A stretch of 64,000 nucleotides of DNA from an uncultured Actinomycetota bacterium (GCA_963782665.1 CAWAKP010000007.1:7909-71908); one strand, 5' to 3'. Shown: positions 13,051 to 32,627, counted from the first letter of the stretch. The notes: generated from the sequence alone by a model not told the origin. Translations and numbers: made by a program.

Positions 13051-13058
13051 CGGCCGTC

Positions 13059-13274: not shown

Positions 13275-13367
13275 AGTTCCTCTTATCCCATGTCACCCGT
13301 TCGGAGTACATCCCCCGTGCGGTCACGGCCTTAGCGTGTCGCGCCCTGTGTGCCCTGCCCCGGCGTG

Positions 13368-13404
13368 CGACAGGGCCCCCGCGCGCTGCGCGGAGGCCCT
13401 GTCG
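13368..13404 (-). terminator. terminator-like hairpin downstream of 13412 gene
   Basis: Stem CGACAGGGCC / GGCCCTGTCG enclosing a second GC stem, immediately after the stop at 13412. Confidence 0.5.
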
Positions 13405-13411
13405 GGGAGGG

Positions 13412-13888
13412 TCAGTCGTCGTTCTGGTCGCCCCCGCCGCCGGATCCGCCGGATCCGCCCTGGCCGCCCTGCTGACCGTCGCCGCCCTGGTCGTGCGACG
13501 CGTCGGGCGAGTGGGTGGAGCCGGACGAGTGGTCGCCCTGCTCGTCCTGGTCGTCGCCCTGCTCGTTCTGGTCGTCGGCGTCGTCGCTCTCATGGGTCTT
13601 CGTCGTCGACGGCGAGGCGTGCTCTGACTCGCTCGGCTCGGCGGACTCCGACGGCTCAGGGGTCCGCGAGTGCGTGGCGGTCGGCTCCGCCGACGCCGAC
13701 TCCGAGGGCTCATCGGACTCGGTGGGCTCGGGAGACTCGGACCCGGTGCTCGCGCTGGTGGACGTGGACGTGGACACGACGTCGGTGCTGGGCGACAACG
13801 GTGACGCGAGGTGTCCCGAGGCGAACGCGGCCGACGTGCCCATGAACACGCCGGCGACGACCAGCGGTACCAGGAGCTTGATCTTCAT
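13412..13888 (-). CDS. secreted low-complexity acidic Ser/Glu/Asp/Gly-rich protein
   Basis: ATG 13888 preceded by GGGGGA. Signal peptide MKIKLLVPLVVAGVFMGTSAAFA, then SESPEPTESDEPSES..DDQDEQGD..GGSGGSGGGGDQNDD. Confidence 0.6.
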   Translation of the reverse strand: MKIKLLVPLVVAGVFMGTSAAFASGHLASPLSPSTDVVSTSTSTSASTGSESPEPTESDEPSESASAEPTATHSRTPEPSESAEPSESEHASPSTTKTHESDDADDQNEQGDDQDEQGDHSSGSTHSPDASHDQGGDGQQGGQGGSGGSGGGGDQNDD

Positions 13889-17000: not shown

Positions 17001-17760
17001 CGTTGACGTCCTCGAAGTCACCGCCGAGCAGCACCTGGCTGCCGTCGGGCTTGACCGCGATCGTGTCGACGTCCGGCAGGTTGTGCGTGGGGTCGACGGT
17101 CGAGGACGTCGCGGGAGCCCAGGCCTTGAGCGACCCGGGGCTCGGCTGGCCGACGGCCACCGCGGCGGCGGCGCGGGTGCGCGCGGTGAGCACGCCGCCC
17201 GTGTTGACGCTGGTGAACGCCCCGCCGTAGTAGACGGTGGTGTTGTCCGGCGAGACCGCGATCGCCTTGACGCGGCCCGTCGGCGCCGGGGTGAAGCCGC
17301 TGACGACGGTGCAGCTGGCGATGTCGAGCGCGGCGAGGTTGCCCTTGTTGGCGCCCCCGAACGTGGAGAAGGTGCCGCCGACGTAGAGCGTCGCGCCGTC
17401 GGGCGAGACAGCGAGGCTGCGCACGGTGGCCGCGGCGGCGGTGCCGAGCAGAGCCTCGGGGGCGCAGGACGTCGGTGCGCCCGTGGCCGCGTCGAGGACG
17501 GCGAAGTTCGAGCGGGCGACGTCCGCGGCGCCCTGGGCGGCGCCTGCCGGCCGCAGGTTCGAGAAGCTGCCGCCGACGAAGACCTTGCCGCCCGCGCTCG
17601 CGACGGCCCAGACGATCCCGTCGGTCTGGTACGTCGACTGCGGTGTCGCCGTGAACGTCACCGGCGCCTCGAGCGCTCCCGCGGACCCGGACGCGACGAG
17701 GGGGAGTCCGGCGGCCACCACGGCAGTGGTGGCCAGACTCGCCAGCAGACGTGCGCGCAT
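14089..17760 (-). CDS. large secreted multidomain protein (beta-propeller repeats, FN3, LamG/concanavalin-like, Ig-like domains)
   Basis: ATG 17760 gives signal peptide MRARLLASLATTAVVAAGLPLVASGSAGA. Repeated (Y)xGGxFxxVNG propeller blades, FN3-like VRVSWLPS..TYTLERS, LamG-like block (..ETWFSTTS..LYVDG..), C-terminal Ig-like repeats. Confidence 0.8.
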   Translation of the reverse strand: MRARLLASLATTAVVAAGLPLVASGSAGALEAPVTFTATPQSTYQTDGIVWAVASAGGKVFVGGSFSNLRPAGAAQGAADVARSNFAVLDAATGAPTSCAPEALLGTAAAATVRSLAVSPDGATLYVGGTFSTFGGANKGNLAALDIASCTVVSGFTPAPTGRVKAIAVSPDNTTVYYGGAFTSVNTGGVLTARTRAAAAVAVGQPSPGSLKAWAPATSSTVDPTHNLPDVDTIAVKPDGSQVLLGGDFEDVNGTHSHGIAGVDNATGAVTWALTAPPWTTGTDSLGYTSAVKTIVVDANGFYTGNEGTGSGSFDGRTSWGWDHVLRWKDGCLGATQALVVHSNALYSASHAHNCSFIGAYPDGARHHLLAETLTADPTSIGVSGQLPYPTLLPFFPNTNDGDITLFPRETALEGIGPRAMTVAHTGGGDYLYVGGEFSSVNGVVQQGLTRFSQTADAQPSLPVVSASSFTPGQVRVSWLPSLDNDDATLTYTLERSADNGQSWAAIPAATGLTQRSWFWQRPQMVYTDSAVAMGSAYKYRVTVTDGTVTRTSGERTVVVTNIGSGAPGSYGPSPYEAAVLGDNPELYVRYDEVGDVFLSDRSDNRDNLVLKGAGSFGPGLLSSDPSHALTLTGSAGQVLYSQKLMDSPTNYSLETWFSTTSTSGGKLIGFGNKQDYASNTFDKMLWMTNAGQLAFGVYTGAKVVLTSPTVYNDGVRHHVVATQSSSLGMRLYVDGALVASNTTKTNQVFKGYWHVGGDNLVSWPGAPASYAFAGTLDDTAVYNSALSASAVAVHWGARDLPGTTVASLTPQKPTVSFGGVADGTSVKGVVPVSVFGTTTPGTTSEPATLELLVDGVASPAYTFTCAQTGWSCSTTFDWDTSTLSLGSHTVSARITSVNPADSATSATATLTVLASAAPQAPSVSISVPGAGTGTTGVVGPGPVDVHAAASTVTGTTTYPSSLDLIVDGNTGAPATSVPCTGTTYDCSGVLTWNTAGLYGSHTLAVRVNATTGCETVTNACSKLSSALAVKVAAPTAVALTALKVVRSGTTVTVKGRVTVPLSKLGAAAMTVKVTGRPAVGTAISRTVATTSTGYFAAAFRVSTTTVFTAQALTTGWYLPSSTVLRQYVAGVPTCRLSATTVKRGVRDVMTCRLASLPSGTAVTVQYAYAGKWRTLVSAKSRSGAAYLGFAMRSRGTWSLRVVIGSNKVYYTSVSSTLRLRVV

Positions 17761-17976
17761 CCGTCGTCCTCTCGTGTCCCCCGTGGGCGTTGCGAGCCGG
17801 TACGTCGGCTCAGCGCGGCCCGCTGGTGCGACGACCAGCGTATGTGCTGCGTTCCCTCCCCTTGCACGACAGGTCGACCAGGTTGACCGTTCCGGAGTGC
17901 TGGCGAGAGCCGAGCGGAGCAGACCCGTCACGGAGTGTGGAGCAGGGCACACGCAGCGCCATGTCGACGGGCGCAG

Positions 17977-19368
17977 TCAGTGCGGTCCGGGGGGCTCGCG
18001 CAGGGCGTCCGGGTCGGCGCCCATCGCGGCCATGAGGCGGGCGACGAGCGACTCGCGCACCCGCTGGTAGGAGGCGTCGTCGGGCAGCGCGCCGCTCTCG
18101 TGCGCGAGGTCGAGCATGGCCAGCTCGTCGGCCAGCACCGCGGCGTCCGTGGGTCCCGGGACCGGTGGCTCCGGCTCGGGAGGGTCCGGCCGGGGCACGG
18201 GCGCCGTCGTGGTCGTGCGGCCGGCAGCCGTCGCGGTGGCAGGGCCGGACTTCTTCGCCGGCGCGGGTGTCGCCGCCGCGGTCGTCGTGGCCTTGCGCGT
18301 GCGGGGCGGCTGCGGTGTCGCGCCCTTGCCGCGCTGCGCGGGCGCGGGCGGGGTAGTCCCGCGTCGAGCTCGGCGCCACCACCACACGCCTGCAGCGGCG
18401 ATGCCCAGGATGCCGAGCCCCGCGACGATGGCCGTCCAGGGGACCGTCGATCCGGTGCCGAGATCGAGAGTGACGGTCGTCCCGGCGGCGAGGGGTCCGG
18501 CGCGCAGCACCTGGTAGGTGGTCCCGCGGTCGGTCTGGGTCCCCGCCGACGTGAGCTGCGCCGACGTCACCGCCGTGCCCTGCGGTGCCAGCACGGTGAA
18601 CGTCGTCGTCGGCTGGTCGATGAGGAAGAAGAGCGAGGCAGCCGTCGGGGCCTCGTAGCGCATCGTCCCGGTCGTCGTCCCGGGCGGGACCGGTCGCGTG
18701 TGCGCCCACGTCGTCCCGACGACCGCGTCGCAGCAGACCTCGAACCACCCGACGTACTGGAGGTTCGTCGCGCCGGGTGCGACGGGGAGCAGCACGGCGG
18801 CGTTGCCCTTGTCCGGGGCACCGGCGAGCGGCTGCTCCGTGCGGTAGGCCGTGCCCGCGGAGTTGACGAGCGTGAGGTCCTGCTCGACGGCCATCGTGGC
18901 TCCGGTGATGTCGAGCCACACTGTCCAGTCCTTGCGCGTGATCGGCGCGGCCGCCGTCGTCGTCTCGTAGACCGGCAGGGTCACCGTGACCGTGGCGGCC
19001 GCGTCGACCCCGATGACGTCGGTGGAGAACGTCACACCGGAGTGGACCGTCGTGACCGTGTAGGTCCAGTCCGAACCGCCGGCGAGGCCGTCGAACTCGA
19101 ACTTGCCCGCGGCATCGGCGGTGCCGGTCGCCGTGATCGGGTCGGACGTCGAGCCCGCGCCGTGCAGCGTCACGATGGCTCCGGGCACCGGCTTGTGCGC
19201 GACGCCGAGCAGCACGACGCCGCGGATGGCTGCCGTGCCGGCGGCCGAGCTGGACCGCGCGAGCGCGGCCTGCGCAGGCAGCGCCGCGACGATTCCGGGC
19301 ACGAGGCAGAGTGCGGCGCCGGCGAGTGCCAGAGCGACCCTGACCCGACCGGCGCCGTGATCCCGCAC
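17977..19368 (-). CDS. single-pass membrane protein with N-terminal carboxypeptidase-regulatory-like beta-sandwich domain
   Basis: GTG 19368 lies 3 nt after the stop of the upstream gene. Signal peptide, IRGVVL..PVPGAIVTL..TDAAGKFEF motif, TM helix (IVAGLGILGIAAAGVWWW), Pro/Thr-rich cytoplasmic tail. Confidence 0.65.
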   Translation of the reverse strand: MRDHGAGRVRVALALAGAALCLVPGIVAALPAQAALARSSSAAGTAAIRGVVLLGVAHKPVPGAIVTLHGAGSTSDPITATGTADAAGKFEFDGLAGGSDWTYTVTTVHSGVTFSTDVIGVDAAATVTVTLPVYETTTAAAPITRKDWTVWLDITGATMAVEQDLTLVNSAGTAYRTEQPLAGAPDKGNAAVLLPVAPGATNLQYVGWFEVCCDAVVGTTWAHTRPVPPGTTTGTMRYEAPTAASLFFLIDQPTTTFTVLAPQGTAVTSAQLTSAGTQTDRGTTYQVLRAGPLAAGTTVTLDLGTGSTVPWTAIVAGLGILGIAAAGVWWWRRARRGTTPPAPAQRGKGATPQPPRTRKATTTAAATPAPAKKSGPATATAAGRTTTTAPVPRPDPPEPEPPVPGPTDAAVLADELAMLDLAHESGALPDDASYQRVRESLVARLMAAMGADPDALREPPGPH

Positions 19369-19371: not shown

Positions 19372-19764
19372 CTACTCCTTCACCCGAGTCCCGCAGGAGC
19401 GGCAGAACGCGTCGGCTGCGTCGACGGTGGCACCGCACCCTGCGCAGGAGTGTCGCATCATCGCGGCCTTGCGCGCGGCGATGGCGGCCTCGATGTCGGC
19501 GCGCAGCTCGTCGGGCGACTTCGCGTGCGACATGACCGGAGGTGACGACGGCTGTTCCAGCCCTGCGGCCGGGGAGAGGGTCGCAGCATCCGCGGTGGCG
19601 GTTGCGACGGTGCCCGCGACGTCCTCCCGCGCCACTGCGGACGCCGTGACGGGAGGGAGCACGATCGGCGGCTGTCCGGACACGGCCGGCTCGAGGAACG
19701 GGTGCAGGACCATCCAGGCCATGCTCACGAGCAGCAGCAGTCCGAGGACCAGGTAGGCGTTCAT
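19372..19764 (-). CDS. membrane-anchored zinc-ribbon protein (CxxC..CxxC), function unknown
   Basis: ATG 19764 is 1 nt from the ccmF stop. N-terminal TM helix, C-terminal CAGCGATVDAADAFCRSCG. Confidence 0.6.
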   Translation of the reverse strand: MNAYLVLGLLLLVSMAWMVLHPFLEPAVSGQPPIVLPPVTASAVAREDVAGTVATATADAATLSPAAGLEQPSSPPVMSHAKSPDELRADIEAAIAARKAAMMRHSCAGCGATVDAADAFCRSCGTRVKE

Positions 19765-19765: not shown

Positions 19766-21733
19766 TCAGGCCTCGACCTTCTCCGCCTCGTGCGCGACGT
19801 CGGTCGGCAGCGGCGGTGCGGTGCGTCGGCGCGGCAGCACGAAGAGGATGCCGCCGAGCGAGAGGAGCAGGCCGCCCAGCCAGATCCACACCACGGTCGG
19901 GTTGGTGAAGACCGTCAGGGTGGCGACGTTCTTGGACAGGTCGGCCTCTTCGAGGACCACGTACACGTCCTGCTTCCAGCTCGTGATGATGCCGACGTTG
20001 GCATGCGTCTCGCCGCTCGACGTGAACTGGTCCTGCCGGGTGTCCATCGTGGCGACGGTGCGACCGTCGACGTCGAGCACGTTGACCGTCGCGACGAAGG
20101 AGCTGCGGTCGGCCTGCTGGTCGACGTTGAGAGCTGCCAGCCGGATGTTCTGACCCTGGCTCGTGCTCGCGCTGCCGACGGTGAGCGTCACGCGGTTCTG
20201 CTGTTGCAGGCTCGAGTTCAGCGTCACCGCAGCGAGCAGGACGATGAGCCCGACGTGTGCGACGTACGGGCCGGACGCGCGCAGCGCGGCGAGCAGCCGT
20301 CCGTCGCTCGTCTCGCGCCAGGCCGAGCCGACGCGGCGGTACATCTTGCGCGCGACCGTGGCCAAGGCCAGCAGTGCGAGCGTGACGACGAGGGCGACGC
20401 CCCACGCCTGCCAGCCGCTCATGGCCCACAGCCCGACGAACAGCACCGCGCCGGTGCCGGCACGGACGACGAGAGTGCGGAGCCGCGAGCCCTCGGTCTG
20501 GTCGGGCAGGAGCGGGGACAGCGCGAAGATCGCGAGGATCGCGATCCCGAGCGGGGTGCACACGAGCCGGAAGAACTCGGGGGTGACCGCGATCTCCTGG
20601 TCGCGCAGCACGCGGAGGAACAGCGGGAACATGGTGCCCCACAGCACGGCGACGGTGATCGCGACCAGCAGCACGGTGAGCGCGCGCTGGCCGAACCAGC
20701 CGTGGCCGCGCCCGTCGGCCTTGGGGGCGCGCAGCTGCGGGAGGCGCCAGACGATGAGGCCGCCGCTCACGAGCATGATCGCGAGGATCGCTGCGCCCAT
20801 GACCCCGCCGAGGCCGGACTCGCCGAACGCGTGCACCGACGAGATGACACCGGACCGGGTGAGGAAGGTGCCGAACAGGCAGAGCAGGAAAGTCGTCACG
20901 ACGAGAACGAACCCGAGGACGCGCAGGCGACCGGTTCGCCAGTGCGTGAGACCGGAGTGCAGCAGCGCGGTGCCGGTGAGCCAGGGGAGCAACGACGCGT
21001 TCTCGACCGGGTCCCAGCCCCAGTAGCCGCCCCAGCCCAGCTCGACGTATGCCCAGCGCGCGCCGAGAACGATGCCGATCGTCAGCGCGATCCAGGAGAG
21101 CGCGCTCCAGCGCTGCGTCACCTTGAGCCAGGGTCCCTTGTCCGGTCCGGCCACGAGTGCCGAGATCGTCAGGGCGAAGGGCACCGTGTAGAGGATGTAG
21201 CCGGCGTACAGGGTCAGCGGGTGGATGATCTGGAGCGGGTTCTGCAGCAGCGGGTTGAGTCCCTGGCCGTCGGCCACCGGAGTCACCATCGTGACGAACG
21301 GGCTCTCGATCATCGTGACGAGTCCGGCGAACAGAGCGGTGACGACGCCGAACGTCGTGACGGCGTACGGCGCGATCCCCCAGTGCTTGCGGCGGTTCTG
21401 CACGACGATGATCGCGGCGAGCAGGGCCGAGATCCACGTCCAGAGGAGCAGCGACCCACCCTGGCCGGCCCACATCGCAGCGAGCTTGTAGGGCAGGTCG
21501 AGGCTGCGGCTGGTGTAGTCGGCGACGTACTGCATCGAGAAGTCCGACGTCACGAGGGCCACCAGCAGGGTCACGGACGCGACGGTCGTCGCGAGAGCCG
21601 TCGCGAAGACGGCGCCCTCCGCGCTGCGGACGAAGTCGTCGCGGTGGCGCAGCGCGCCGACGAGCGACGCGACGACGCTCCACAGTGCCGACGCCAGCGC
21701 CAGTGCGATGGCAAACGTGCCGAGCTCAGCCAT
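19766..21733 (-). CDS. ccmF: cytochrome c maturation haem lyase CcmF
   Basis: 655-aa polytopic protein with WWD-type motif WGGYWGWDPVEN and conserved His-containing loops. Confidence 0.9.
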   Translation of the reverse strand: MAELGTFAIALALASALWSVVASLVGALRHRDDFVRSAEGAVFATALATTVASVTLLVALVTSDFSMQYVADYTSRSLDLPYKLAAMWAGQGGSLLLWTWISALLAAIIVVQNRRKHWGIAPYAVTTFGVVTALFAGLVTMIESPFVTMVTPVADGQGLNPLLQNPLQIIHPLTLYAGYILYTVPFALTISALVAGPDKGPWLKVTQRWSALSWIALTIGIVLGARWAYVELGWGGYWGWDPVENASLLPWLTGTALLHSGLTHWRTGRLRVLGFVLVVTTFLLCLFGTFLTRSGVISSVHAFGESGLGGVMGAAILAIMLVSGGLIVWRLPQLRAPKADGRGHGWFGQRALTVLLVAITVAVLWGTMFPLFLRVLRDQEIAVTPEFFRLVCTPLGIAILAIFALSPLLPDQTEGSRLRTLVVRAGTGAVLFVGLWAMSGWQAWGVALVVTLALLALATVARKMYRRVGSAWRETSDGRLLAALRASGPYVAHVGLIVLLAAVTLNSSLQQQNRVTLTVGSASTSQGQNIRLAALNVDQQADRSSFVATVNVLDVDGRTVATMDTRQDQFTSSGETHANVGIITSWKQDVYVVLEEADLSKNVATLTVFTNPTVVWIWLGGLLLSLGGILFVLPRRRTAPPLPTDVAHEAEKVEA

Positions 21734-21739
21734 GACCGA

Positions 21740-21895
21740 TCACGAGTCCTTGGTGTCCTGGTCCGCGGCGTCCGAGTGCAGGGCGAGCGCGGAGGCGAGC
21801 GCGCGGCGACGGACGAGCAGGTGGATGGTGTAGGCGCCGTAGAGCGTGACGGCGAGGCCGTAGCCGACGACGAGGTTCAGGCTGTTGTTGATCAT
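21740..21895 (-). CDS. ccmD: CcmD-like small haem-export protein
   Basis: 51-aa single-TM peptide (MINNSLNLVVGYGLAVTLYGAYTIHLLVRRR..). ATG 21895 overlaps the ccmC stop (ATGA). Position between ccmC and ccmF. Confidence 0.6.
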   Translation of the reverse strand: MINNSLNLVVGYGLAVTLYGAYTIHLLVRRRALASALALHSDAADQDTKDS

Positions 21896-22629
21896 GACTC
21901 GATCTCCTCGAGAGCTGAGGCCATGCGACCCACCTGCAGGCGGAGCCGGACGAGGTAGGCGTAGACGAGGGTGAACGTGGTGAGACCGACGAGCAGCGCG
22001 ATCACCATCGGGGCCGGCATGTGGGGACCGCCGCTGGTGATGATCACCTGCTGCGGGTGCAGCGTCCGCCACCAGTTCACCGACAGGTAGATGATCGGGA
22101 CGTCGATGAACGCGATGATGCCGAGGACGGCGGAGAAGCGGGCCCGACGGGCCGGGTCCGGGACGTACGCGCGCACCGCGTTGTAGGCGAGGTAGAGCAG
22201 CCACAGGACGAGGAACGACGTGAGCCGCGGCTCCCAGGTCCAGTACACGCCCCAGATCGCGTGGCCCCACATCATCCCGGTGACCAGGACGACGGTGGTG
22301 AACAGCGTGCCGATCTGGGCGGAGGCGGCGGCGAGCGCATCGGCCTTCATGTCGCGCTTGCTCAGGTAGTGGATGCTCGACGCGAACGTGACGCCGAAGG
22401 CGACGAAGCAGATCCACGCCGACGGCACGTGGATGTAGAAGATCCGCTGCATCGCGCCCTGCAGCTCGTCCTCGGGTGCGAAGAAGAACGCGAAGTACGC
22501 GAAGACTCCGAGCATGGCCGTCGTGAGGATCGCGAGGCGGCTGGGTCGCTGGCCGGGGTGGTAGTCGCTGACGTGGACGACGGAGACGGCCTCTCGCCCG
22601 ACGGTGGTGAGCTTGCTGGTGATGCTCAT
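21892..22629 (-). CDS. ccmC: haem exporter/haem-handling protein CcmC
   Basis: ATG 22629 overlaps the stop of the upstream gene. WWD motif WGVYWTWEPRLT, 6 TM. Confidence 0.9.
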   Translation of the reverse strand: MSITSKLTTVGREAVSVVHVSDYHPGQRPSRLAILTTAMLGVFAYFAFFFAPEDELQGAMQRIFYIHVPSAWICFVAFGVTFASSIHYLSKRDMKADALAAASAQIGTLFTTVVLVTGMMWGHAIWGVYWTWEPRLTSFLVLWLLYLAYNAVRAYVPDPARRARFSAVLGIIAFIDVPIIYLSVNWWRTLHPQQVIITSGGPHMPAPMVIALLVGLTTFTLVYAYLVRLRLQVGRMASALEEIES

Positions 22630-24170
22630 TGGTCCTCCACTACGAACGAGAAGGTGGCGATCGCCGCCAGGCCGACGACGGCGTCGAAGCCGGCGAGGAG
22701 GGCGAACCACTGGAACATGTCCACGCTGCCGCCGGCGTCGCCGCCGAGGGCACGCCGCGTCGTCTCGACGGCAGCGATCATGAGCGGGACGGCGACGGGC
22801 ATGACGATCAGCGGCAGGAGGGACTCGCCCATCCGGCTGCCGACGGCGATGCCCGAGAACAGGGTGGCGATGACGACGAGGCCGATGGTCGCCAGGACCA
22901 CCACGCCGATCAGCGCCGGCACGTCGAGAGAGCCTGCGGACTCGCCGGTGGCGAGCACGAGGAACATCGGGACGACGAAGGCCTCGATGACGGCCATCAT
23001 CGCCAGGCCCGAGATCAGCTTCCCGACGAAGATCGACTCGCGCGGGGCGGGCGAGAGCAGGAGTCCCTCCATCGCGCGGTCCTGAGACTCACGCGTCATC
23101 GACCGGCCGACGCCCAGCAGGACGGCGAACAGGAGGCTGATCCAGAGGATGCCGGTCGCGAGGCCCTGCGAACCGCCGCCGGGGGCCGAGGTGAAGCTGG
23201 CCGTGATGAGCACGGTGATCGCGAACAGCGCGGCGGAGCCGAGGGCGTCACGGCTGCGCAGCTCGACACGCATGTCCTTGACGGCGATGAGCCAGGCCGC
23301 GCGCATCCGTGTCGGCGGCGTCACGCGCGCCGGGTTCGGGTCGAGCGCGACGTACGCCACGGAGTCGTCGTGGTCACGGCGCGAGCCGGTCGGAGCGGGT
23401 ACCCACGGTGCGTCGCCGGTGCCGGAGGCCGTGCCTGTGCTGGCGCCGGCGCCCACGAGCGCCAGCTCGACGGATGCGACGCTGTCGAACTCGCTCTCCG
23501 TAGAGGAGATCGGCTCGTCGACCAGCACGCCGCCCTCACCGATGACGACGAGGCGGGTCGGACCGTCGGTGGCGCGGGCGGCCTCGTGCACCGTCATGAC
23601 CACGGTGGTGCCGGCGGCGTTGAGCATGCGGAGCATCGCGACGAGCCGTGCGCACGACGCCTCGTCGAGCCCGGTGAACGGCTCGTCGAGCAGCAGCACC
23701 TCGGGACCGTGCATGAGCGCGCGCGCGAGGGTGAGGCGCTGGCGGTTGCCGCGTGAGAGCACCGCGGCCGGCCGGTCGAGGACCTTGCGCAGGTCGAGCG
23801 CGTCGGCCAGCTCCTCGATGCGCGCCTCGGCGTCGGCGACACCGAACATGCGGCCGTGGAAGAGCAGGTTCTGGCGCCCGGTCAGGTCGCCGTAGAGCAG
23901 GCCGTCGTGGGAGACGAAGCCGAGCATCCGGCGCAGGCCAGGTCCCGCCTTGCGCAGGTCGACCCCAGCCAGGGTGACGGTGCCCGACGTCGGGGCGGTC
24001 AGACCTGACGCCATCCGCAGCAGCGTCGTCTTGCCGGCGCCGTTGGCGCCCATGAGCGCCACGAACGCGCCGGCCGGGACGGTCAGGTCGACGTGGCGCA
24101 GCACCTTGTGGTGCCCGTACGTCTTGCTGACGTCCTGGAAGACGAGGTCACTGGCCATTGCTGGTGCCAC
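22626..24170 (-). CDS. fused CcmA (ABC ATPase) - CcmB (permease) protein
   Basis: Single uninterrupted 514-aa ORF. N-terminal Walker A GANGAGKTT, signature LSRGNRQR, Walker B LLLDEP; ~70-aa linker; C-terminal 6-TM CcmB-like domain. Confidence 0.85.
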   Translation of the reverse strand: MAPAMASDLVFQDVSKTYGHHKVLRHVDLTVPAGAFVALMGANGAGKTTLLRMASGLTAPTSGTVTLAGVDLRKAGPGLRRMLGFVSHDGLLYGDLTGRQNLLFHGRMFGVADAEARIEELADALDLRKVLDRPAAVLSRGNRQRLTLARALMHGPEVLLLDEPFTGLDEASCARLVAMLRMLNAAGTTVVMTVHEAARATDGPTRLVVIGEGGVLVDEPISSTESEFDSVASVELALVGAGASTGTASGTGDAPWVPAPTGSRRDHDDSVAYVALDPNPARVTPPTRMRAAWLIAVKDMRVELRSRDALGSAALFAITVLITASFTSAPGGGSQGLATGILWISLLFAVLLGVGRSMTRESQDRAMEGLLLSPAPRESIFVGKLISGLAMMAVIEAFVVPMFLVLATGESAGSLDVPALIGVVVLATIGLVVIATLFSGIAVGSRMGESLLPLIVMPVAVPLMIAAVETTRRALGGDAGGSVDMFQWFALLAGFDAVVGLAAIATFSFVVEDQ

Positions 24171-24654
24171 CCGACTGGAACTTCGACGGGCACTTGGCGA
24201 GCAGGACGCTGGAGTGGAAGAGGCCGTCGGTGCCGAGAGAGCCCTCCGCGACCATCTGCGTCCCCGGCTGCGACGCGGTCGACAGCGCCGTGGTGGCCGA
24301 GCCCTGGTAGACGACCGGCACGGAGGTGGTGCCGTCGGTCAGGACGAAGGTCGTCGTGCCGGCTCCGGTCTCGACGCTGTCCTTGACGAGGGTGCCGGCG
24401 AGGCGGACGTGCTGCCCCTGCAGGGCCTTCACCTCGGTCGGGGTCTTGTAGTAGACGACCGACTTGCCGAGCATCGAGGTCGCGACGAAGGCGACGCCGA
24501 TGACGAGCACGGATCCGATGACGATCCAGAGCCACGCGTGGCTCTTGCGCTCGAGATCCGCGGGCGCGTCGTCTGCGGTCGCCGGCTGCGGGGCCTGGTC
24601 GAGCTGGGTCATGGGGACCTCCTCGGACCGGTGGGTGCTGACCTTCGTCGTCAT
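24148..24654 (-). CDS. ccmE: CcmE haem chaperone, Cys-type variant
   Basis: N-terminal TM anchor plus OB-fold. C-terminal LLAKCPSKF aligns with canonical VLAKHDENY. Alternative start ATG 24612. Confidence 0.85.
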   Translation of the reverse strand: MTTKVSTHRSEEVPMTQLDQAPQPATADDAPADLERKSHAWLWIVIGSVLVIGVAFVATSMLGKSVVYYKTPTEVKALQGQHVRLAGTLVKDSVETGAGTTTFVLTDGTTSVPVVYQGSATTALSTASQPGTQMVAEGSLGTDGLFHSSVLLAKCPSKFQSGGTSNGQ

Positions 24655-24906: not shown

Positions 24907-25590
24907 TCAGCCCGCGGCGACGGCCTTCTCGAGCATCGTCGTGAACGTGGCCTCGTCGAGCGAGCTGATGTACTTGTCGATGACCTCGCCCTTGCTGTTG
25001 ATGACGTAGGTCTCCGGCAGGCCGCTGACGCCGTAGGACGCACCGATGCGCGAGTCGGGGTCGACCACGCTGGGGTAGTCCAGGCCGTAGGTCTGGTAGT
25101 AGGTGTGGGCACCGGCTGTCGTGTCGTGCGTGTCGACGCCGAGGAACACGACGCCCTTGGCCTCCCAGCGCTTCGCGACGTCGGCCACGACCTGCGCCTC
25201 GGCCTTGCACGTCGTGCACCAGGACGCCCAGAAGTTCACGACCACCGTCTTGCCCTTGTAGTCGGCCAGCGAGATCTGCTGGTCGCCCGTCACCTGGGTG
25301 CCGCTGAAGACCGGCGCCATCGAGCCGATGGGGTCGGCCGACAGCCGCGGGCCGGTGACGTTGGCCGTCGCGCTGGAGCTGCGCGGTGCCAGGGCGAACC
25401 CGAACAGCACGAGGGCGACGACGACGATGACTGCCAGGATGAAGATCCCGATCCGGCGGCTGCTCGTGGCGCTCGGCTCCGCGGTATCGACCTGGTCGGC
25501 GTCCGCGCCCCGCGCGTCCTGGATGGTCATCGTGCTCGCCTCCACGGCGGACTCGTCGTTCGGTACCGGTTCCTGGGGCCACGTCGTCAT
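24907..25590 (-). CDS. TlpA/ResA/CcmG-type membrane-anchored thiol-disulfide oxidoreductase
   Basis: ATG 25590 overlaps the stop of the decahaem gene (ATGA). TM anchor then thioredoxin fold with WASWCTTCKAE active site. Confidence 0.85.
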   Translation of the reverse strand: MTTWPQEPVPNDESAVEASTMTIQDARGADADQVDTAEPSATSSRRIGIFILAVIVVVALVLFGFALAPRSSSATANVTGPRLSADPIGSMAPVFSGTQVTGDQQISLADYKGKTVVVNFWASWCTTCKAEAQVVADVAKRWEAKGVVFLGVDTHDTTAGAHTYYQTYGLDYPSVVDPDSRIGASYGVSGLPETYVINSKGEVIDKYISSLDEATFTTMLEKAVAAG

Positions 25591-27224
25591 GACGTCACCT
25601 GGCCGTTCTGCTTGGCGGGCGGGGTGTCGAGGATGTCGCCCTGGTGGCAGCGGGCGCAGAAGACGGGCTGGTGGCAGTAGGCGCAGGCCTTTCCGCCGGA
25701 CACCCGCATCGACGCGGCGTGGTTGTAGAGCATCTGGTCGTGGTCGACCTTCACCGCGCCGGTGGTGTGGCAGTTCTCGCAGTAGGACTTCTGGTGGCAC
25801 GACCCGCAGGTGGTTCCGGATGGATCGACAGCACCGGCGGGCTGGTGGGCGATCGACGCGTTGCGTGCTGCGGCGACGGCTGCCTCGGCGCTCTTGTGGC
25901 TGAAGACCCAGAGCTTGTCGCTGTGCGAGGTCGGTGCGCCGGCGAGCACGAGCCCGGTCACCGAGCCTCCGATCTGCGGGAAGGTGTGGCAGGTCGAGCA
26001 CGTCGACGGGATCGAGTCGCTCGTGACCTTGCCGTTGACGACCTTGAAGTGCGCGCCGTCGTGGCAGCGGAAGCAGCCGGCCGAGGTCTGGTGACCCAGG
26101 TTGTCGGGGTAGGTCTGGGCCTGCACCTTCATCTCCGGCGTGGCGAGCTCGCGGTAGATCGACTTGAGCTCGGCGATCGCGCTCGTGATCTGCGCGGCCT
26201 GCTTCGTCGCGACGGCGGGGTACTCGTCCTGGTAGGTGAAGCGGAGGCTGTCCATCCCGCGGTCGGCGTCCTCGAGGGTCGGGTACGAGGCGTTGAGCAG
26301 GTCGACGGCGTCCTTCTTGATGTACGGGAGCGTCGTGCTCATGCGTCCGGCGGCCAGCGCCTCGTCGACGGCCTGCGAGGTGCTCGGGATCGCGTGGCCG
26401 ACGCGGTTGTGGCACTCGATGCAGTCCATCGTGCGCGTGCGCTGCTCCTGCGTGAGGCGCTGCACGTCCGGGGTGGCGTTGCTCGACAGGCCGACCTGGT
26501 TGGCGGCGATGTACTGCGTCGTCGTGCCGTCGGGGTTGTGCACCGCGACCGAGTCGATGGTCTGCGAGCGTGGGTCGGAGCTCGTGAACGTCACGTTCTG
26601 CTGCACGTGCCAGTGGACCCCGCGCGGGCTGTTGGGCCCTGCCGCGGTGTCCTGGTCACCGGTGAGGCCGGCGGGACGCAGGACGACGGCCACCATGTCG
26701 CGCGTGTTGGCCTTGTTGTCCTCGTAGCGCGGGCGCAGGACGAGACGCACCGGACCGCCGTTGGCCGTGATCGACTCGAGCGAGTGGCACCGCAGGCACG
26801 TCTCGGTCACGGGCGGGAGGTCGGCGTGGTCGGGCGCCGGGATCGGGCGCTCGTAGGTGTTCGTGATCAGCTGGAAGAGCTGCTTGGTGCCCGCAGCCTT
26901 GGCCTTGACCCACCCGCCGACGCCGGGCTCGACATGGCACTCGGCGCACGCCAGCTCCGAGTGCGGCGACATCTCGTACGCCTTGTGCTCGGGGGCCATC
27001 GTGTGGCACAGGCCGCAGAAGGCGGCGGTCTCGCTGAAGCTCACCGCGAACACGGCCCCGATCGTCATGATCGAGCCGATCCCGGCGATGACGATGAACC
27101 CGAGGATCGCGCCGCGGCGCGTCTTGGGCACCGGGATCTTGTGGATCAGAGCCCGGGTACGTCGCCAGTGCTTCCGCCTCGGTGCAGGCACCGAGGCTTC
27201 GGCGACGGGCGCTTCGTGCGACAT
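25587..27224 (-). CDS. membrane-anchored NapC/NirT(NrfH)-family cytochrome c extended to ten CXXCH motifs
   Basis: 545 aa. N-terminal TM helix followed by CGLCH, CAECH, CLRCH, CIECH (NapC/NirT-like module), then CFRCH, CSTCH, CGSCH, CENCH, CAYCH, CARCH. Confidence 0.85.
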   Translation of the reverse strand: MSHEAPVAEASVPAPRRKHWRRTRALIHKIPVPKTRRGAILGFIVIAGIGSIMTIGAVFAVSFSETAAFCGLCHTMAPEHKAYEMSPHSELACAECHVEPGVGGWVKAKAAGTKQLFQLITNTYERPIPAPDHADLPPVTETCLRCHSLESITANGGPVRLVLRPRYEDNKANTRDMVAVVLRPAGLTGDQDTAAGPNSPRGVHWHVQQNVTFTSSDPRSQTIDSVAVHNPDGTTTQYIAANQVGLSSNATPDVQRLTQEQRTRTMDCIECHNRVGHAIPSTSQAVDEALAAGRMSTTLPYIKKDAVDLLNASYPTLEDADRGMDSLRFTYQDEYPAVATKQAAQITSAIAELKSIYRELATPEMKVQAQTYPDNLGHQTSAGCFRCHDGAHFKVVNGKVTSDSIPSTCSTCHTFPQIGGSVTGLVLAGAPTSHSDKLWVFSHKSAEAAVAAARNASIAHQPAGAVDPSGTTCGSCHQKSYCENCHTTGAVKVDHDQMLYNHAASMRVSGGKACAYCHQPVFCARCHQGDILDTPPAKQNGQVTS

Positions 27225-27231: not shown

Positions 27232-28119
27232 TCACTTCCCGCTGCTGCTCGCAGGCGCCGGGGTGGCGGTCGTCAGGCTCTTGAGGTGGGTCTGCACGTT
27301 CTTGGCGATGTCGGACGTCGGGTCGATCGCGATGACCCGCTGCCACTCGGCCCGGACCTTCGCGAGATCCGGCGTCGCGCTGCTCAGGTACAGGAAGCCG
27401 AGGTCGTAGTGCGCCTCGGCGTTCTTCGGGGCGATGGCCGCGGCCTTGAGCCAGCTCTTCTCGGCGTTCTTGCTGTCGCCCTGGTTGAACTGCGCGGCCC
27501 CGAGACCGACCCAGCCGGTAGCGTTCTTGGGATCGAGCTTCACGACCTCGGAGCTGAACTGCGCGGAGTTCTTGTAGTCGCCGGCCTGGAAGTAGAGGCT
27601 CGCCAGCGCCGCGTACGACGCGACGTCCTTGGGGTTGGTCGTGATCTTCTGCATGAGGTCCGAGACCTTCTTCATGTCCAGAGCGGGCGCGCTGCTGCTC
27701 GCAGAGACGTCCGGGGCGCCGGTGATGCCGGGCACGCTGCTGGCGTTGCTCATCGTGTGGACGCCGAACGCCGCACCGACCATCACGACGAGGCCGGCGG
27801 CGACCCACGCGATCTTGCTGCGCGAGCGCGGCAGGGCTGCAGCGGGAGGCGCGTCGTCGCCGTCGAGAGCCATGGGCGCAGGTGCGGGTGCCGGGTCCTC
27901 GGTCAGCAGGCTCCACACCGCCTCGACCTCGGAGAGCTGGTCCTTCGCCCAGGCGCGCTGGTCCTCGGGCGCGTGCTCGAGCACGGCCACCGCGGCCCGG
28001 TGGGCGGCCTCGACGTCACGGTCGGTGGCGTCCGGCGGCAGGCCGAGCCGGCTGAGCAGCTCGCGGCGTACGTCGACGGGGTCGGTGATCGTGGGTCCGG
28101 GCTGCGTCTGCGACGACAT
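27232..28119 (-). CDS. TPR-repeat membrane protein, CcmI/CycH/NrfG-like apocytochrome chaperone candidate
   Basis: ATG 28119. Cytoplasmic N-terminal region, one TM, then TPR repeats (ALASLYFQAGDYKNS.., GWVGLGAAQFNQGDSKNA.., AHYDLGFLYL..). Confidence 0.6.
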   Translation of the reverse strand: MSSQTQPGPTITDPVDVRRELLSRLGLPPDATDRDVEAAHRAAVAVLEHAPEDQRAWAKDQLSEVEAVWSLLTEDPAPAPAPMALDGDDAPPAAALPRSRSKIAWVAAGLVVMVGAAFGVHTMSNASSVPGITGAPDVSASSSAPALDMKKVSDLMQKITTNPKDVASYAALASLYFQAGDYKNSAQFSSEVVKLDPKNATGWVGLGAAQFNQGDSKNAEKSWLKAAAIAPKNAEAHYDLGFLYLSSATPDLAKVRAEWQRVIAIDPTSDIAKNVQTHLKSLTTATPAPASSSGK

Positions 28120-28207
28120 GGTCGCCCCCTGCTCGTCCTTCGGTCCTCGCGGGACCGGCGGGTGCACTCCACCCACCGACAATCCTCGGCGCGCGCCGCC
28201 CTCGCGA

Positions 28208-28292
28208 CCATCCGCCGTCGGGCACGTTCCAGGTAGAGAAACCGATACCGCAGATGCATCCGGGTGCCGGAAGGCATATGCCCTCCTGTACC
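28208..28292 (-). promoter_or_regulatory. conserved upstream element, copy B (ahead of TPR-decahaem-tlpA operon)
   Basis: Same four blocks and identical 20-mer GGCATATGCCCTCCTGTACC (28273..28292) as copy A. Also contains the palindrome GATGCATC. Confidence 0.45.
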
Positions 28293-28380
28293 GGGAGGAG
28301 GTGCGCCCGTCGGTGCGCGCGGGGGTTCGGGCACCGGGCACCGTGATCACCTTCTCCCGTCGCCGATGGATCGGCAGGCG

Positions 28381-29841
28381 TCAGTAGGACTCGTTGTCGT
28401 GCGACTTGCCGTGGCAGACGAGCGTGCAGGTCCCGTGGCCCTCGCTCGTCGACGTCCACGTCAGGACTCCGTTGTACGGCTTGACGTTGGGACCGAAGTT
28501 GACGAGGCGCGTGTAGGGCGACGCCTCCGTCGCGGTCGAGTGCAGCGTGAAGTGGCACTCGGCGCAGATCGCGTTGCCCTGCCCGGCGCCCAGGACGTCG
28601 ATGCTCGTCCCGGCCGACCCGGAGCCGCCGATCCCGGTCAGGTGCTTGCCGTGGTAGCGGAAGTTGGTGGCGGTCGACGTCTCGGTGCGGAAGGGCGCCG
28701 GGTTGTGGCAGGTGTAGCAGAGGGCGAAGTTCGTGTCGGAGTAGCTCTCGCCGCTGCCCATGAGGTCGCGGTCGCGGTAGTTGCGGATCAAGAGCCCGCG
28801 GAACGTCGAGCTGTGCGGTGACAGGTCGTCGCCGGGTCCGGCTGCCGTCGACGCCTTCGAGCTCGCGTGGCAGCTGGTGCAGCGCACGGTGTTGGGGACG
28901 CCACCGGCGCCATCGACGCTGAACGTCCACAGCTTGCCGGTCCACGAGCCGGCGAGGCTGTCCTTCATCTTCTGCGTCGTGTTGGTGCCCGGGCCCTCGA
29001 CCGGGTGGAACGAGGCGTTGGCCGGGTTGAACTCGACGCCGGCGTCGAGCATCTGCCACGACGGACGCACCCCGCTGTTGGACATCAGCGTCGTGTAGCC
29101 CGAGTGGCACTTGAAGCACAGCTGGTACTCGAACTGGACCGCGGCGGACTTGCCGTCGAGGAACGTGTACGCCGGTGTACTGCCCGCGGCGCCGTTCGTG
29201 ACGGCGACGCCGGACACGCCGGTGAGCCGACCCGAGAGAGGCCAGGCGACCCCCGCGGCCGGAACGGTCGAGTCGACGGCGGCGGCCTGGTGCGGGTCGT
29301 GGCAGTCGCTGCACTCGACGTGCCGGTTGAGCACCCCGCCGAACTCGTCGTTGCTCCCGAGCACGTGCGAGGTCGTCACGGTGGCGTCGTGGCGGTAGAA
29401 CGACGCGGTGTATCCGGTCGCGGCGGGATCCGACGGGTCGTTGGTCGCGACCGCGGGATCCGAGTACTGGGACTCGACGTTGGAGCTCGCGCCCGTGCCG
29501 TCGTGGCAGGTGAAGCACAGCGTGCTCTGCGGCGACACCTGCGGGAGGAGGTCCACCGACTTCGCGGTGTGCGCCCGGTGGCAGCCGGCGCAGGCATCGG
29601 TCCTCATCGAGTTGTAGGGGCCGTGCGGCGAGGCTGCGGTGGGGACGACACCGGCCCTCGGCGCGGCCACGGTGCTCGGCACCGGGTTCGCGGCGGCGGG
29701 GGTCGTCACTGCTGCGCGGGACGCGCCCGCCGACGCCTGTGCGACGCCGACCGGGAGCATGACCATCCAGGCGGCGCAGAGCCCGACGACGCCGGCTCGA
29801 CGCACTCGGTGCGCCGTGGTCGTCGTCCGCCTGGTCATCAT
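28381..29841 (-). CDS. secreted multihaem cytochrome c (7 CXXCH + 1 CX3CH)
   Basis: 486 aa with signal peptide. CAGCH, CFTCH, CSDCH, CFKCH, CTSCH, CYTCH, CAECH and terminal CTLVCH. Paralogue of the upstream gene. Confidence 0.85.
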   Translation of the reverse strand: MMTRRTTTTAHRVRRAGVVGLCAAWMVMLPVGVAQASAGASRAAVTTPAAANPVPSTVAAPRAGVVPTAASPHGPYNSMRTDACAGCHRAHTAKSVDLLPQVSPQSTLCFTCHDGTGASSNVESQYSDPAVATNDPSDPAATGYTASFYRHDATVTTSHVLGSNDEFGGVLNRHVECSDCHDPHQAAAVDSTVPAAGVAWPLSGRLTGVSGVAVTNGAAGSTPAYTFLDGKSAAVQFEYQLCFKCHSGYTTLMSNSGVRPSWQMLDAGVEFNPANASFHPVEGPGTNTTQKMKDSLAGSWTGKLWTFSVDGAGGVPNTVRCTSCHASSKASTAAGPGDDLSPHSSTFRGLLIRNYRDRDLMGSGESYSDTNFALCYTCHNPAPFRTETSTATNFRYHGKHLTGIGGSGSAGTSIDVLGAGQGNAICAECHFTLHSTATEASPYTRLVNFGPNVKPYNGVLTWTSTSEGHGTCTLVCHGKSHDNESY

Positions 29842-29955: not shown

Positions 29956-31437
29956 TTACTTGTTGTGGCACATGTTGCAGGTGCCACGGTTGTCGACCCG
30001 GAGCAGGAAGCTGTCCGGAGCGGCCTTGTTGATGCCGAACTCGGTCTGCACGGTGCTCGAGTACGAGGTGGAGCCATCGCCGGTCATGCTGGCGTTGGAC
30101 CCGTGAGCAACGTGGCACTGGATGCAGTTGGGACTGCCTTCCTTGCCGTTGTTCGACCGGTGCATGTACATGAACGTCGCGTCGCCCGAAGCCGTCTTGT
30201 AGGACGAGCTACCCGCCAGCAGGCGGGTGTGGCAGGTGGTGCACCACTGCGAGATGTTCGCGATGAACGCCGTCGGGGCAGTCCCGCTGGCGACGTAGGC
30301 TCCGGTGTAGTTGTGGTCGTCCTGGGCCCAGTAGTTCGTGGTCGTGTAGACCTTGGTGCCCTTGGAGTCCGGGATACCGGAGATCTTGCCGATCACCGTC
30401 GCGGCAACGTTCACCGTGGTGGAGATCGAGAAGGTCGTCGTGGTCGCCGCCGCTGACACCGTGAAGATGCCGTTGTACGTCGCCGGGGTGAACCCGGAGA
30501 GCACGACCTTCTGACCAGCGACCAAGCCGTGAACGTTCCACGTCTTGAAGGTCGCCGTGGTGGCGTCGAACGCCGTCTCCGCTGCGATCCCTGCGGGATC
30601 CGCGTACCCGACCGTGCCGCCAGTCGCTGACGCGAAGCCGACGTTACGGATCGACAACGTGAAGTGCTGGTTGTCGGTCACGACCGTGACGGTGCCGGCA
30701 AGGATGCCGTCCGCTCCGCCGGTCGTCCCGTAGAACGAGACGGGCTGGGTCACCTTGAACGTGTTCGCCGCTGCGGTGATCACGTCGTAGGTGTAGGTGG
30801 TGTTCGAGCCAGAGACGGTCGCCGAGGTCTGCGTCACGCTTGTGACTGCAACCGGCGCGGGGAAGGCCAACGCAGTGCCGTCGGTCGGAACCGGACGGAG
30901 GATGCGGTAGTTCCCGTTGCCGTGCGGGTCGTGGCAGGACGTGCACTCGAGAGTGACGGCTGTGCCGTTGCCGCTACCGTTGGCGCCGCCGCCCCAGGCC
31001 GTGCCCGCGACGCCGATCTGGTGCTGCGACGTCGTGGCTGCTGCGGTCCCGACCGGGACCGACTTGGGGCTGGCTGTGTAGGACGCTGCTCCGGACCCGA
31101 TCAGGGCGAAGTTGAAGCCACCACCGCGCAGTGCGCCGATGCTTGCTCCACGTGTGTTGACGCCCGAGATCGAGTACCCGACACCGTCCATGACATCCGA
31201 CGACGCACCCGTGCCACCCGAGCCGTGACAGCTCTGACAGAGAACTGTCTCGTCCTGGGTGAGCAGGTATGCGCTGGTCGCGGTGTGAGCCCGGTGGCAA
31301 CCTGCGCACCGGTCCACGGCCATGTTCCCCGACGTCGAGACGTGGGGACCGTTGTCGGCGAACGCCGGCGCAGCGCCCATCATCCCGAAGGACAGGATGA
31401 CTGCACTCCCTACTACGAGGGATGCGAGCCGCTTCAC
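29956..31437 (-). CDS. secreted hexahaem cytochrome c with large non-haem insert
   Basis: CAGCH, CQSCH, CTSCH, CTTCH, CIQCH, CNMCH. ~230 aa without haem motifs between sites 3 and 4. GTG 31437 has GGAGG 9 nt upstream; the ORF could also start at GTG 31446. Confidence 0.85.
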   Translation of the reverse strand: MKRLASLVVGSAVILSFGMMGAAPAFADNGPHVSTSGNMAVDRCAGCHRAHTATSAYLLTQDETVLCQSCHGSGGTGASSDVMDGVGYSISGVNTRGASIGALRGGGFNFALIGSGAASYTASPKSVPVGTAAATTSQHQIGVAGTAWGGGANGSGNGTAVTLECTSCHDPHGNGNYRILRPVPTDGTALAFPAPVAVTSVTQTSATVSGSNTTYTYDVITAAANTFKVTQPVSFYGTTGGADGILAGTVTVVTDNQHFTLSIRNVGFASATGGTVGYADPAGIAAETAFDATTATFKTWNVHGLVAGQKVVLSGFTPATYNGIFTVSAAATTTTFSISTTVNVAATVIGKISGIPDSKGTKVYTTTNYWAQDDHNYTGAYVASGTAPTAFIANISQWCTTCHTRLLAGSSSYKTASGDATFMYMHRSNNGKEGSPNCIQCHVAHGSNASMTGDGSTSYSSTVQTEFGINKAAPDSFLLRVDNRGTCNMCHNK

Positions 31438-31540
31438 CGTCGTCACCTCCTTCCATGAGGACTCACGTCTGTGACGTGATGGGTTTGTCTTCCTTCACGG
31501 AGCGGTTCTCCGCTCCCCGCTCACCCCTCTGTCTGCCGCA

Positions 31541-32626: not shown

Positions 32627-32627
32627 G

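Follow-up and report, generated by a model that had tools for sequence, protein, structure and literature searches.

An intact System I (Ccm) operon with a Cys-type CcmE adjoins multihaem cytochrome genes in an uncultured Actinomycetota bacterium

A stretch of 64 kb from an uncultured Actinomycetota bacterium (GCA_963782665.1, CAWAKP010000007.1:7909-71908; the whole stretch is called the window below), with a G+C content of ~70%, carries at positions 19,766 to 24,654 the genes of a System I (Ccm) cytochrome c biogenesis pathway whose haem chaperone, CcmE, reads CPSKF where canonical CcmE reads HDENY. From its genes and motifs, their conservation and synteny, and the signs of purifying selection, we interpret the region, with a probability of about 0.7, as a dedicated and functional System I operon with a Cys-type CcmE, co-transcribed with three multihaem cytochrome genes, whose products it most likely serves. 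It belongs to a known kind, the variant System I with Cys-type CcmE, and is not a categorically new system. A preliminary description of this DNA had pointed to the CPSKF motif, to CcmA and CcmB in one open reading frame (ORF) and to the lack of CcmH in the operon. All three observations hold up in Pfam scans, alignments and a six-frame motif scan, and the operon has the architecture described for Desulfovibrio and archaea, as had been proposed; the rest of the earlier interpretation is only partly borne out.

The CcmE domain is clearly present (Table 1), and the C-terminus of the protein reads ...SSVLLAKCPSKFQSGGTSNGQ, the protein end as translated being LLAKCPSKFQSGGTSNGQ. In HMMER alignments to solved structures (1J6Q and 8CE8), LAKCPSKF is matched with LAKHDENY of the S. 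putrefaciens and E. coli proteins, with Cys155 at the position of the haem-binding His130 and Phe159 at that of Tyr134, the reported axial ligand of haem in holo-CcmE (PMC3884852; PMC10457321). Given this alignment, Cys replaces the covalent haem-binding His and Phe replaces the Tyr, as the preliminary description had stated. The D. vulgaris Cys-type CcmE construct 2KCT aligns as ...LMTKCP and has the K-C-P context in common. Thus, the canonical HxxxY is altered at both of its defining residues; of the CXXXY of the Allen 2006-type variant, the Cys is present and the Tyr at +4 is Phe159.

Both substitutions are widely conserved. A word-indexed search gave 155 CcmE homologues; among the 120 listed, at 43-94% identity, 113 had CPSKF, six CPSKY and one GPSKF, and CPSKF was kept down to 43% identity. 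A profile search run exhaustively over 1.84 billion representative proteins gave 4375 CcmE-like sequences at E ≤ 1e-3. The Phe:Tyr frequencies were taken from its 258 usable nearest sequences, in which the motif was C…F in 154, C…Y in 98, H…Y in four, and C…M and C…L in one each. On a rough neighbour-joining tree of these 258 relatives, the state of the Tyr/Phe position changed at least 14 times; switches between Phe and Tyr numbered at least about 10. Given the 154 C…F against 98 C…Y sequences and the repeated changes on the tree, CPSK[F/Y] is the consensus of Cys-type CcmE, with an evolutionarily labile Tyr/Phe position, and the feature conserved at +4 is an aromatic side chain rather than the Tyr hydroxyl. 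CPSKF is the dominant motif of a large clade of Chloroflexota and Actinomycetota. The preliminary description had singled out the Tyr-to-Phe change as uncharacterised; indeed, we found no paper describing it, but it is not an extra oddity of this locus, since CPSK[F/Y] is the Cys-type consensus. Rare variants of the motif were also seen, namely GPSKF (P0011; Cys lost, possibly an error) and CPSKM and CPSRL (P0157 and P0255).

By analogy with D. desulfuricans and M. acetivorans, in which Cys-type CcmE forms a haem-stainable, sodium dodecyl sulfate (SDS)-stable and Cys-dependent holo-CcmE (PMC9084895), Cys155 would bind haem covalently. The main mechanistic alternative is that Cys155 serves as a reversible axial thiolate or non-covalent haem binder, the loss of Tyr reflecting another mode of holding haem in this subfamily. 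Such a mode has been reported for the Cys-type CcmE of D. vulgaris, which binds ferric haem non-covalently via its conserved Cys (PMC3884852); moreover, the Tyr ligand has been replaced repeatedly by Phe, and rarely by Met or Leu, and no alternative conserved His, Met or Tyr was found in the CcmE C-terminal tail. Against this stand the SDS-stable holo-proteins, the requirement for the Cys of CXXXY in haem binding by M. acetivorans CcmE (PMC9084895), and the invariant CPSK context, which is common to the D. desulfuricans and M. acetivorans proteins. We consider the non-covalent alternative unlikely, though far from negligible.

The CcmA ATPase and CcmB permease of System I are both present, in one ORF. 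As the preliminary description had noted, this ORF is continuous and contains a ~70-residue linker; the CcmA part spans approximately residues 1-222 (ABC_tran, residues 24-165) and CcmB residues 295-509. Related loci were collected by a scan of one genome per species, which yielded 80 loci (numbered with the prefix L below) and is biased to Phe forms since AKCPSKFQ was a search peptide. In L002-L010 and L014, the fusion is in frame and not interrupted by a stop, the linkers being 19-60 residues long, and ~90 protein clusters of 460-530 residues contain both PF00005 and PF03379. Ratios of nonsynonymous to synonymous substitution rates (dN/dS) were computed against L002 and L004, at dS ~0.5-0.6. 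The linker gave ~1-1.8, as in neutral evolution, versus 0.25-0.28 in both flanking domains. Distant fused forms at 32-35% identity were found in other lineages (P0402-P0404, P0406, P0408, P0409, P0411, P0416 and P0417), one of them annotated from a Nitrospinota metagenome-assembled genome (MAG), which suggests that the fusion arose more than once. The CcmA-CcmB fusion is thus clade-wide and recurs in Nitrospinota. Since the E. coli Ccm(AB)2 complex has a core with 1:1 A:B stoichiometry and the N-terminal elbow helix of CcmB lies on the cytoplasmic side (PMC10457321), joining the nucleotide-binding and transmembrane (TM) domains into one half-transporter is stoichiometrically and topologically unproblematic.

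The remaining core components keep their catalytic residues. In the alignment of CcmC with E. coli CcmC (7F02), YIHVPSA lies opposite His60 and WWRTLHP opposite His184, both His being kept; the Trp-rich loop is also present, with Glu for the canonical Asp (WxWE vs WxWD). A co-variation of WxWE with Cys-type CcmE was considered and rejected: WxWE was seen only in the six closest actinobacterial loci, and most Cys-type loci have WxWD. Downstream of ccmC, a 51-residue ORF, conserved in L002 and L004 (tblastn), is the candidate CcmD. The unsplit CcmF matches T. thermophilus CcmF (6ZMQ) at 1.8e-69 with its four conserved His aligned: IHP, LLH, SVHAF and VAH occupy the P-His1, TM-His1, P-His2 and TM-His2 positions, and the WWD motif is present. 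Across CcmE, CcmA, CcmB, CcmC and CcmF, dN/dS was 0.25-0.44; the values for CcmE, CcmC and CcmF (0.30-0.44) indicate purifying selection.

No protein with an LRCxxC motif had been noticed in the operon, and this absence extends to the whole window. In a six-frame scan of the window for [LIVMF]RCxxC, all matches were out of frame apart from one CxxCH site within a cytochrome, and no window ORF matched PF03918 (CcmH), the Pfam scans having covered essentially all credible ORFs of the window. In the same scans, no ResB, CcsA-only or DsbD/CcdA protein was found among the window ORFs, the lone ResB match being weak and inside CcmF, and matches to PF01578 (Cytochrom_C_asm) were confined to CcmC and CcmF. 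The thioredoxin encoded upstream of ccmE scored 98.9 bits with the NCBIfam model for ResA and 79.5 bits with that for DsbE, both under the curated cut-offs. CcdA, the supplier of reductant, must be encoded outside the window.

A Cys-type CcmE combined with a lack of CcmH is known from Desulfovibrio and archaea (Allen 2006; Goddard 2010; cited in PMC9084895 and PMC3884852), and the preliminary description had taken this combination as the hallmark of the variant system. The present operon matches that architecture, but the association is no rule. Most of the other loci in the set of 80 belong to Ktedonobacteria and Thermogemmatispora (Chloroflexota), cultured strains included, in which the gene order is thioredoxin, CcmE, CcmF, a protein of 180-225 residues, a small TM protein and a homologue of CPDreg463 (Table 1; for example L024:13684-15096), followed by separate CcmA, CcmB and CcmC. 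The protein of 180-225 residues (for example L024:12745-13311, L057:12484-13101 and L016:12442-13083) carries L[RQK]CPxCxGES and matches PF03918 at 127 bits, and is a bona fide CcmH. Because these loci with an AKCPSKF CcmE encode a PF03918 protein after CcmF, Cys-type (CxxxF) CcmE coexists with CcmH in the Chloroflexota lineage. Compared with this arrangement, the actinobacterial operon is one without CcmH: no CcmH-like CxxC protein was found in the flanks examined of 13 Cys-type Actinomycetota loci (L001-L014 apart from L011).

Actinobacteria had also been presented as System II organisms. This applies to model actinobacteria such as C. glutamicum, which use System II (PMC9145763), but System I of both the Cys and the His type is in the genome record of Actinomycetota. 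A His-type CcmE (VKHxxxY) was found in seven loci with the order ccmABC-E-F-Trx, from Actinomycetota MAGs and Mycobacterium sp. PSTR-4-N, and CcmH was present where the flank allows a check, namely in L032 and L065 (PF03918 or motif) and in L069 (LTCPSC). The Mycobacterium locus (L069; NZ_JAKRFN010000004, 9250-13666) encodes CcmC, CcmE with VKHSNEY, CcmF, thioredoxin and the CcmH-like LTCPSC protein; other His-type System I loci are L026, L032, L041, L065 and L071.

These comparisons bear on the main genomic alternative, in which a ccmH located elsewhere in the genome, along with ccdA, acts in trans as in the Ktedonobacteria version. The Chloroflexota loci with the identical motif carry ccmH directly after ccmF, some Actinomycetota have a His-type System I with CcmH, and a ccdA outside the window is required in either case. 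However, the slot after CcmF is occupied in Cys-type Actinomycetota loci by ZnR130 and CPDreg463 or by TPR372, the 13 loci mentioned above show no CcmH-like protein in the flanks examined, and CcmH-less Cys-type systems have been proven functional in Desulfovibrio and Methanosarcina, the M. acetivorans system included (PMC9084895). A ccmH acting in trans therefore seems quite unlikely to us.

The genomic setting of the operon suggests likely clients. From 33608 down to 17977, all credible genes lie on the minus strand and their junctions touch or overlap. This cluster of ~15.6 kb, of which the ccm operon (order Trx-E-AB-C-D-F-ZnR-CPDreg) forms the tail, includes three multihaem cytochromes with a total of 23 CxxCH sites as well as NHL and TPR proteins. 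The closest relatives of the locus are in uncultured Actinomycetota MAGs (Candidatus Nanopelagicales and "Actinomycetes bacterium"), and the whole cluster from TPR326 to CPDreg463 is found in Actinomycetota MAGs L001-L010, its order the same or rearranged; the NHL protein and TPR326 head the conserved cluster, with synteny in L001-L010. Since relatives carry the whole cluster, the Ccm operon travels with the multihaem cytochrome genes. The three cytochromes are likely clients of the Ccm system. The decahaem cytochrome matches NrfH (2J7A) at 6.6e-6, and the hexahaem and heptahaem cytochromes show weak MtrC/MtrF-like matches. Clusters of a CymA/NrfH-like quinol dehydrogenase, secreted multihaem cytochromes and NHL/TPR proteins are known from Gram-positive iron reducers (PMC10376724), and multihaem cytochromes had been considered rare in neutrophilic Actinobacteria (PMC7399161). 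The cluster may plausibly take part in electron transfer, be it extracellular or in the periplasmic space.

Table 1. Features of the Ccm operon and the surrounding cluster, in window coordinates
Feature	Position	Strand	Description
CPDreg463	17977..19368	minus	Signal/TM segment, tandem β-sandwich ectodomain, TM helix, cytoplasmic helical hairpin
ZnR130	19372..19764	minus	N-terminal TM helix and C-terminal CxxC…CxxC zinc ribbon; weak zinc-ribbon Pfam matches
CcmF haem lyase	19766..21733	minus	Unsplit, 655 residues; PF16327 137 bits, PF01578 112 bits
CcmF WWD motif	21011-21034	minus	WGGYWGWD
CcmD-like ORF	21740..21895	minus	51 residues, single TM; ATGA overlap with ccmC stop; TM and basic-tail shape
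CcmC	21892..22710	minus	PF01578 120.9 bits; likely start ATG at 22632
CcmC WWD-type motif	22231-22254	minus	WGVYWTWE
Fused CcmA-CcmB	22626..24170	minus	Uninterrupted ORF, 514 residues; PF00005 106.2 bits, PF03379 91.8 bits
CcmA-CcmB linker	23295-23504	minus	Low complexity, ~70 residues (approximately 223-292)
CcmE haem chaperone, Cys-type	24148..24654	minus	168 residues; PF03100 63.2 bits (cut-off 24.6); N-terminal TM anchor and OB-fold
CcmE motif	24178-24204	minus	LLAKCPSKF
Phe159 codon	24180-24178	minus	TTC
Cys155 codon	24192-24190	minus	TGC
CcmG/ResA-like thioredoxin	24907..25584	minus	Membrane-anchored; active site WCTTC; AhpC-TSA, Redoxin and Thioredoxin Pfam matches
Decahaem cytochrome c	25587..27224	minus	10 CxxCH; NrfH/NapC-like N-terminal quinol-dehydrogenase module; PF03264
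TPR372	27232..28350	minus	TM-anchored TPR protein, CcmI/NrfG-like candidate; TPR Pfam matches
Heptahaem cytochrome c (paired CXXCH)	28381..29841	minus	7 CxxCH; PF09699
Hexahaem cytochrome c (paired CXXCH)	29956..31446	minus	6 CxxCH; PF09699
NHL-repeat β-propeller protein	31541-32659	minus	NHL 95.8 bits
TPR326	32628-33608	minus	TM-anchored TPR protein; TPR_CcmH_CycH PF23914 44.4 bits (cut-off 42)
Histidine kinase and LuxR-type response regulator pair	34326-36912		Just upstream of the cluster

The operon was compared with the known systems. It resembles the variant System I of Desulfovibrio and archaea (Allen et al. 2006; Goddard et al. 2010; Gupta et al. 2022, PMC9084895) in the Cys for His in a KCPSK context, the lack of CcmH in the operon and the set of CcmABC, CcmE and CcmF. 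It differs from that variant in the Phe at +4, the fused CcmA-CcmB, the presence of the CcmD-like ORF, ZnR130 and CPDreg463, and the host, which is of a monoderm actinobacterial lineage. In addition, M. acetivorans has CcmF1 and CcmF2 where CcmF is unsplit here, and, unlike the Desulfovibrio system, the present one includes a CcmG/ResA-like thioredoxin and TM-anchored TPR proteins. With the Ktedonobacteria and Thermogemmatispora loci (for example L024 and L057), it shares an identical AKCPSKF in CcmE proteins of 31-39% overall identity, a thioredoxin upstream of CcmE, and a CPDreg-type protein downstream of CcmF that is preceded by a small protein with an N-terminal TM segment. In those loci, by contrast, CcmF is followed by a true CcmH and then by the small TM protein, CcmA and CcmB are separate (order Trx-E-F-H-x-CPDreg-A-B-C), and the flanks examined showed no genes for multihaem cytochromes.

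As in canonical E. coli System I (compared with 7F02, 8CE8 and 6ZMQ), there is an ABC module, a CcmC with WWD motif and two His, a CcmF with WWD motif and four His, a TM-anchored OB-fold CcmE and a candidate CcmG-type thioredoxin; the departures from it are CPSKF for HDENY, the lack of an LRCxxC CcmH domain, WxWE in CcmC and the A/B fusion. System II of C. glutamicum (PMC9145763) performs the same overall task and likewise has a ResA-like thioredoxin; it works without a haem chaperone or ABC module, and no ResB or CcsA homologue is encoded in the window. Finally, clusters of the Dethiobacter alkaliphilus type (PMC10376724) also combine a quinol dehydrogenase, multihaem cytochromes, NHL/TPR proteins and nearby regulators, whereas the cluster described here has its own complete Ccm operon; a function such as iron reduction would be conjectural for it.

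Several proteins encoded in the cluster are candidate accessory factors. ZnR130, conserved in L002 and L004, sits between CcmF and the β-sandwich protein CPDreg463. Its N-terminus and position resemble those of the small TM protein of Ktedonobacteria, and its C-terminus differs in being a zinc ribbon. That ZnR130 is a degenerate CcmH was considered and rejected: it gave no PF03918 signal, and its N-terminus is like that of the small TM protein encoded next to CcmH in the Ktedonobacteria loci, on its downstream side.

CPDreg463 has counterparts in nearly all Cys-type (CPSKF) Ccm clusters of Chloroflexota and in several of Actinomycetota. When an iterated hidden Markov model (HMM) was applied to six-frame ORFs of the 80 loci, 50 Cys-type loci and none of the three His-type loci with enough flank were found to encode a homologue ~1 kb downstream of CcmF. 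Its database homologues are annotated only as hypothetical or as "carboxypeptidase-like regulatory domain". An AlphaFold2 model of CPDreg463 (mean pLDDT 75.8, ectodomain mostly >90) shows a tandem β-sandwich at ~45-305, a TM helix at 311-335, a disordered Pro/Thr-rich stretch and a confident hairpin at 406-449. The best Foldseek matches were the oligosaccharyltransferase subunit Ost1/ribophorin I and the N-domain (β-domain) of M1 aminopeptidase, with low TM-scores of ~0.25; thus, we read the modelled fold as a tandem β-sandwich plus TM helix, with architectural resemblance only. A cytoplasmic motif, L..eL..LD…G.l….Y…R, is conserved in CPDreg across both phyla. The vicinal Cys212-Cys213 of CPDreg463 is invariant only in the close clade, and its candidacy as a general substitute for CcmH was not supported, the pair being absent from the CcmH-less L013 and L022 and from all Chloroflexota homologues. 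As a separate observation, the motif LD(V/L)ExxxxLGxLxxxxYxxLRxRY occurs both in the small TM protein between CcmH and CPDreg (for example L016:13080-13550 and L024:13311-13709) and in the CPDreg cytoplasmic tail (window 18020-18150); the motif gives only a weak GvpG-like Pfam match.

Of the two TPR proteins, TPR326 exceeds the TPR_CcmH_CycH cut-off (Table 1), and TPR372 scores 27.6 bits, under the cut-off of 42. A TPR372 homologue lies directly after CcmF in five loci (L005-L007, L010 and L014). Protein Data Bank searches with the TPR proteins gave generic TPR matches only. A broader proposal would be that the Terrabacteria (Chloroflexota and Actinomycetota) have a distinct subtype of System I, recognisable by its CPSKF CcmE, in which Tyr does not ligate iron and the partners of CcmF, unlike the canonical set, include CPDreg463 and the small TM protein (here ZnR130), and that in the actinobacterial branch these proteins, together with the TPR proteins, took over the apocytochrome handling of CcmH/CcmI. 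We advance this only tentatively and think it rather improbable as a whole.

A number of points weigh against our interpretation of the region as a functional, dedicated System I operon with covalent haem binding by CcmE. All NCBIfam Ccm equivalog scores fall under the curated cut-offs, as for CcmA (TIGR01189; 130.1 vs 131.6 bits) and CcmE (67 vs 126 bits). The CcmD-like ORF matched no Pfam or NCBIfam HMM, and its assignment as CcmD draws on position and weak matches only; similarly, the TPR proteins are considered CcmI-like from their position and weak similarity. No CcdA/DsbD that could re-reduce the thioredoxin is encoded in the 64-kb window, and a ccmH elsewhere is possible given that Ktedonobacteria with the same CcmE motif keep CcmH. 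To these is added the D. vulgaris report cited above, and the literature searched contained nothing relevant on Phe-for-Tyr CcmE (CPSKF or CxxxF) or on Y134 mutants.

The sub-threshold scores and the neutrally evolving linker might further hint at a decaying, non-functional remnant or at sequencing or assembly artefacts; however, all ORFs are intact, all catalytic residues are kept and dN/dS is well below 1, and this conservation effectively excludes both, leaving them with hardly any probability. In particular, sequencing error, which the preliminary description had named as a possible source of the Cys and Phe codons or of the fusion, was discarded: the codons and the reading frame are conserved in more than 100 homologues and in nine related loci, from dozens of independent assemblies. 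The Phe for Tyr, the fused CcmA-CcmB and the absence of CcmH from the window are conserved natural variations, not errors.

On these grounds, a working scheme can be proposed for the operon. A (CcmA-CcmB)2 homodimer of half-transporters, with CcmC and the CcmD-like peptide, would present haem on the outer face of the membrane, where, on the model of D. desulfuricans and M. acetivorans, Cys155 of the membrane-anchored CcmE would capture it. Phe159 is unable to ligate iron and, unlike the Tyr of His-type CcmE, would probably stack on the porphyrin. CcmF would then take the haem and attach it to the CxxCH sites of the neighbouring cytochromes; these sites would be kept reduced by the ResA/CcmG-like thioredoxin. 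The chemistry of CcmH would be dispensed with, as in the proven CcmH-less systems, and the apocytochromes may be handled by the TM-anchored TPR proteins, perhaps with help from ZnR130 and CPDreg463.

Other genes of the window were also noted. Directly downstream of the cluster, the minus strand encodes a secreted protein of 1287 residues (14089-17952) in which β-propeller-like and Laminin_G_3 (ConA-like) domains are combined with Ig-like modules repeated at the C-terminus. An ORF of 952 residues (37397-40255, minus strand) joins a glutaminase domain to a cyclic-nucleotide-binding domain at the C-terminal end. A P-type (E1-E2) ATPase with a C-terminal hemerythrin HHE cation-binding domain is encoded on the plus strand (50057-52639), and an ArsR-family regulator adjoins it on the opposite strand (49281-50177).

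Relative to the literature searched, the following are new: the widespread CxxxF subclass, the labile Tyr position, the joint occurrence of Cys-type CcmE and CcmH in Ktedonobacteria, a CcmA-CcmB fusion that extends across the clade, CPDreg463 and ZnR130 as conserved partners, and, in Actinomycetota, a private System I that is paired with a cluster of multihaem cytochromes. The natural toggling between Tyr and Phe (rarely Met or Leu) provides a ready-made experiment on whether the chaperone needs to ligate iron once Cys has replaced His. The Ktedonobacteria pairing breaks the correlation of Cys-type CcmE with a missing CcmH, on which explanations of the variant system have drawn since 2006. Should the Terrabacteria subtype prove real, it would represent a previously unrecognised accessory module of cytochrome c biogenesis. 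For specialists in cytochrome c biogenesis, CPDreg463, ZnR130 and the natural CcmA-CcmB half-transporter fusion are tractable leads for reconstitution. Lastly, although Actinomycetota are normally described as having System II only, a lineage of this phylum has a private System I attached to a cytochrome/NHL/TPR cluster, which is relevant to how monoderm bacteria gain extracellular or respiratory multihaem electron transfer.

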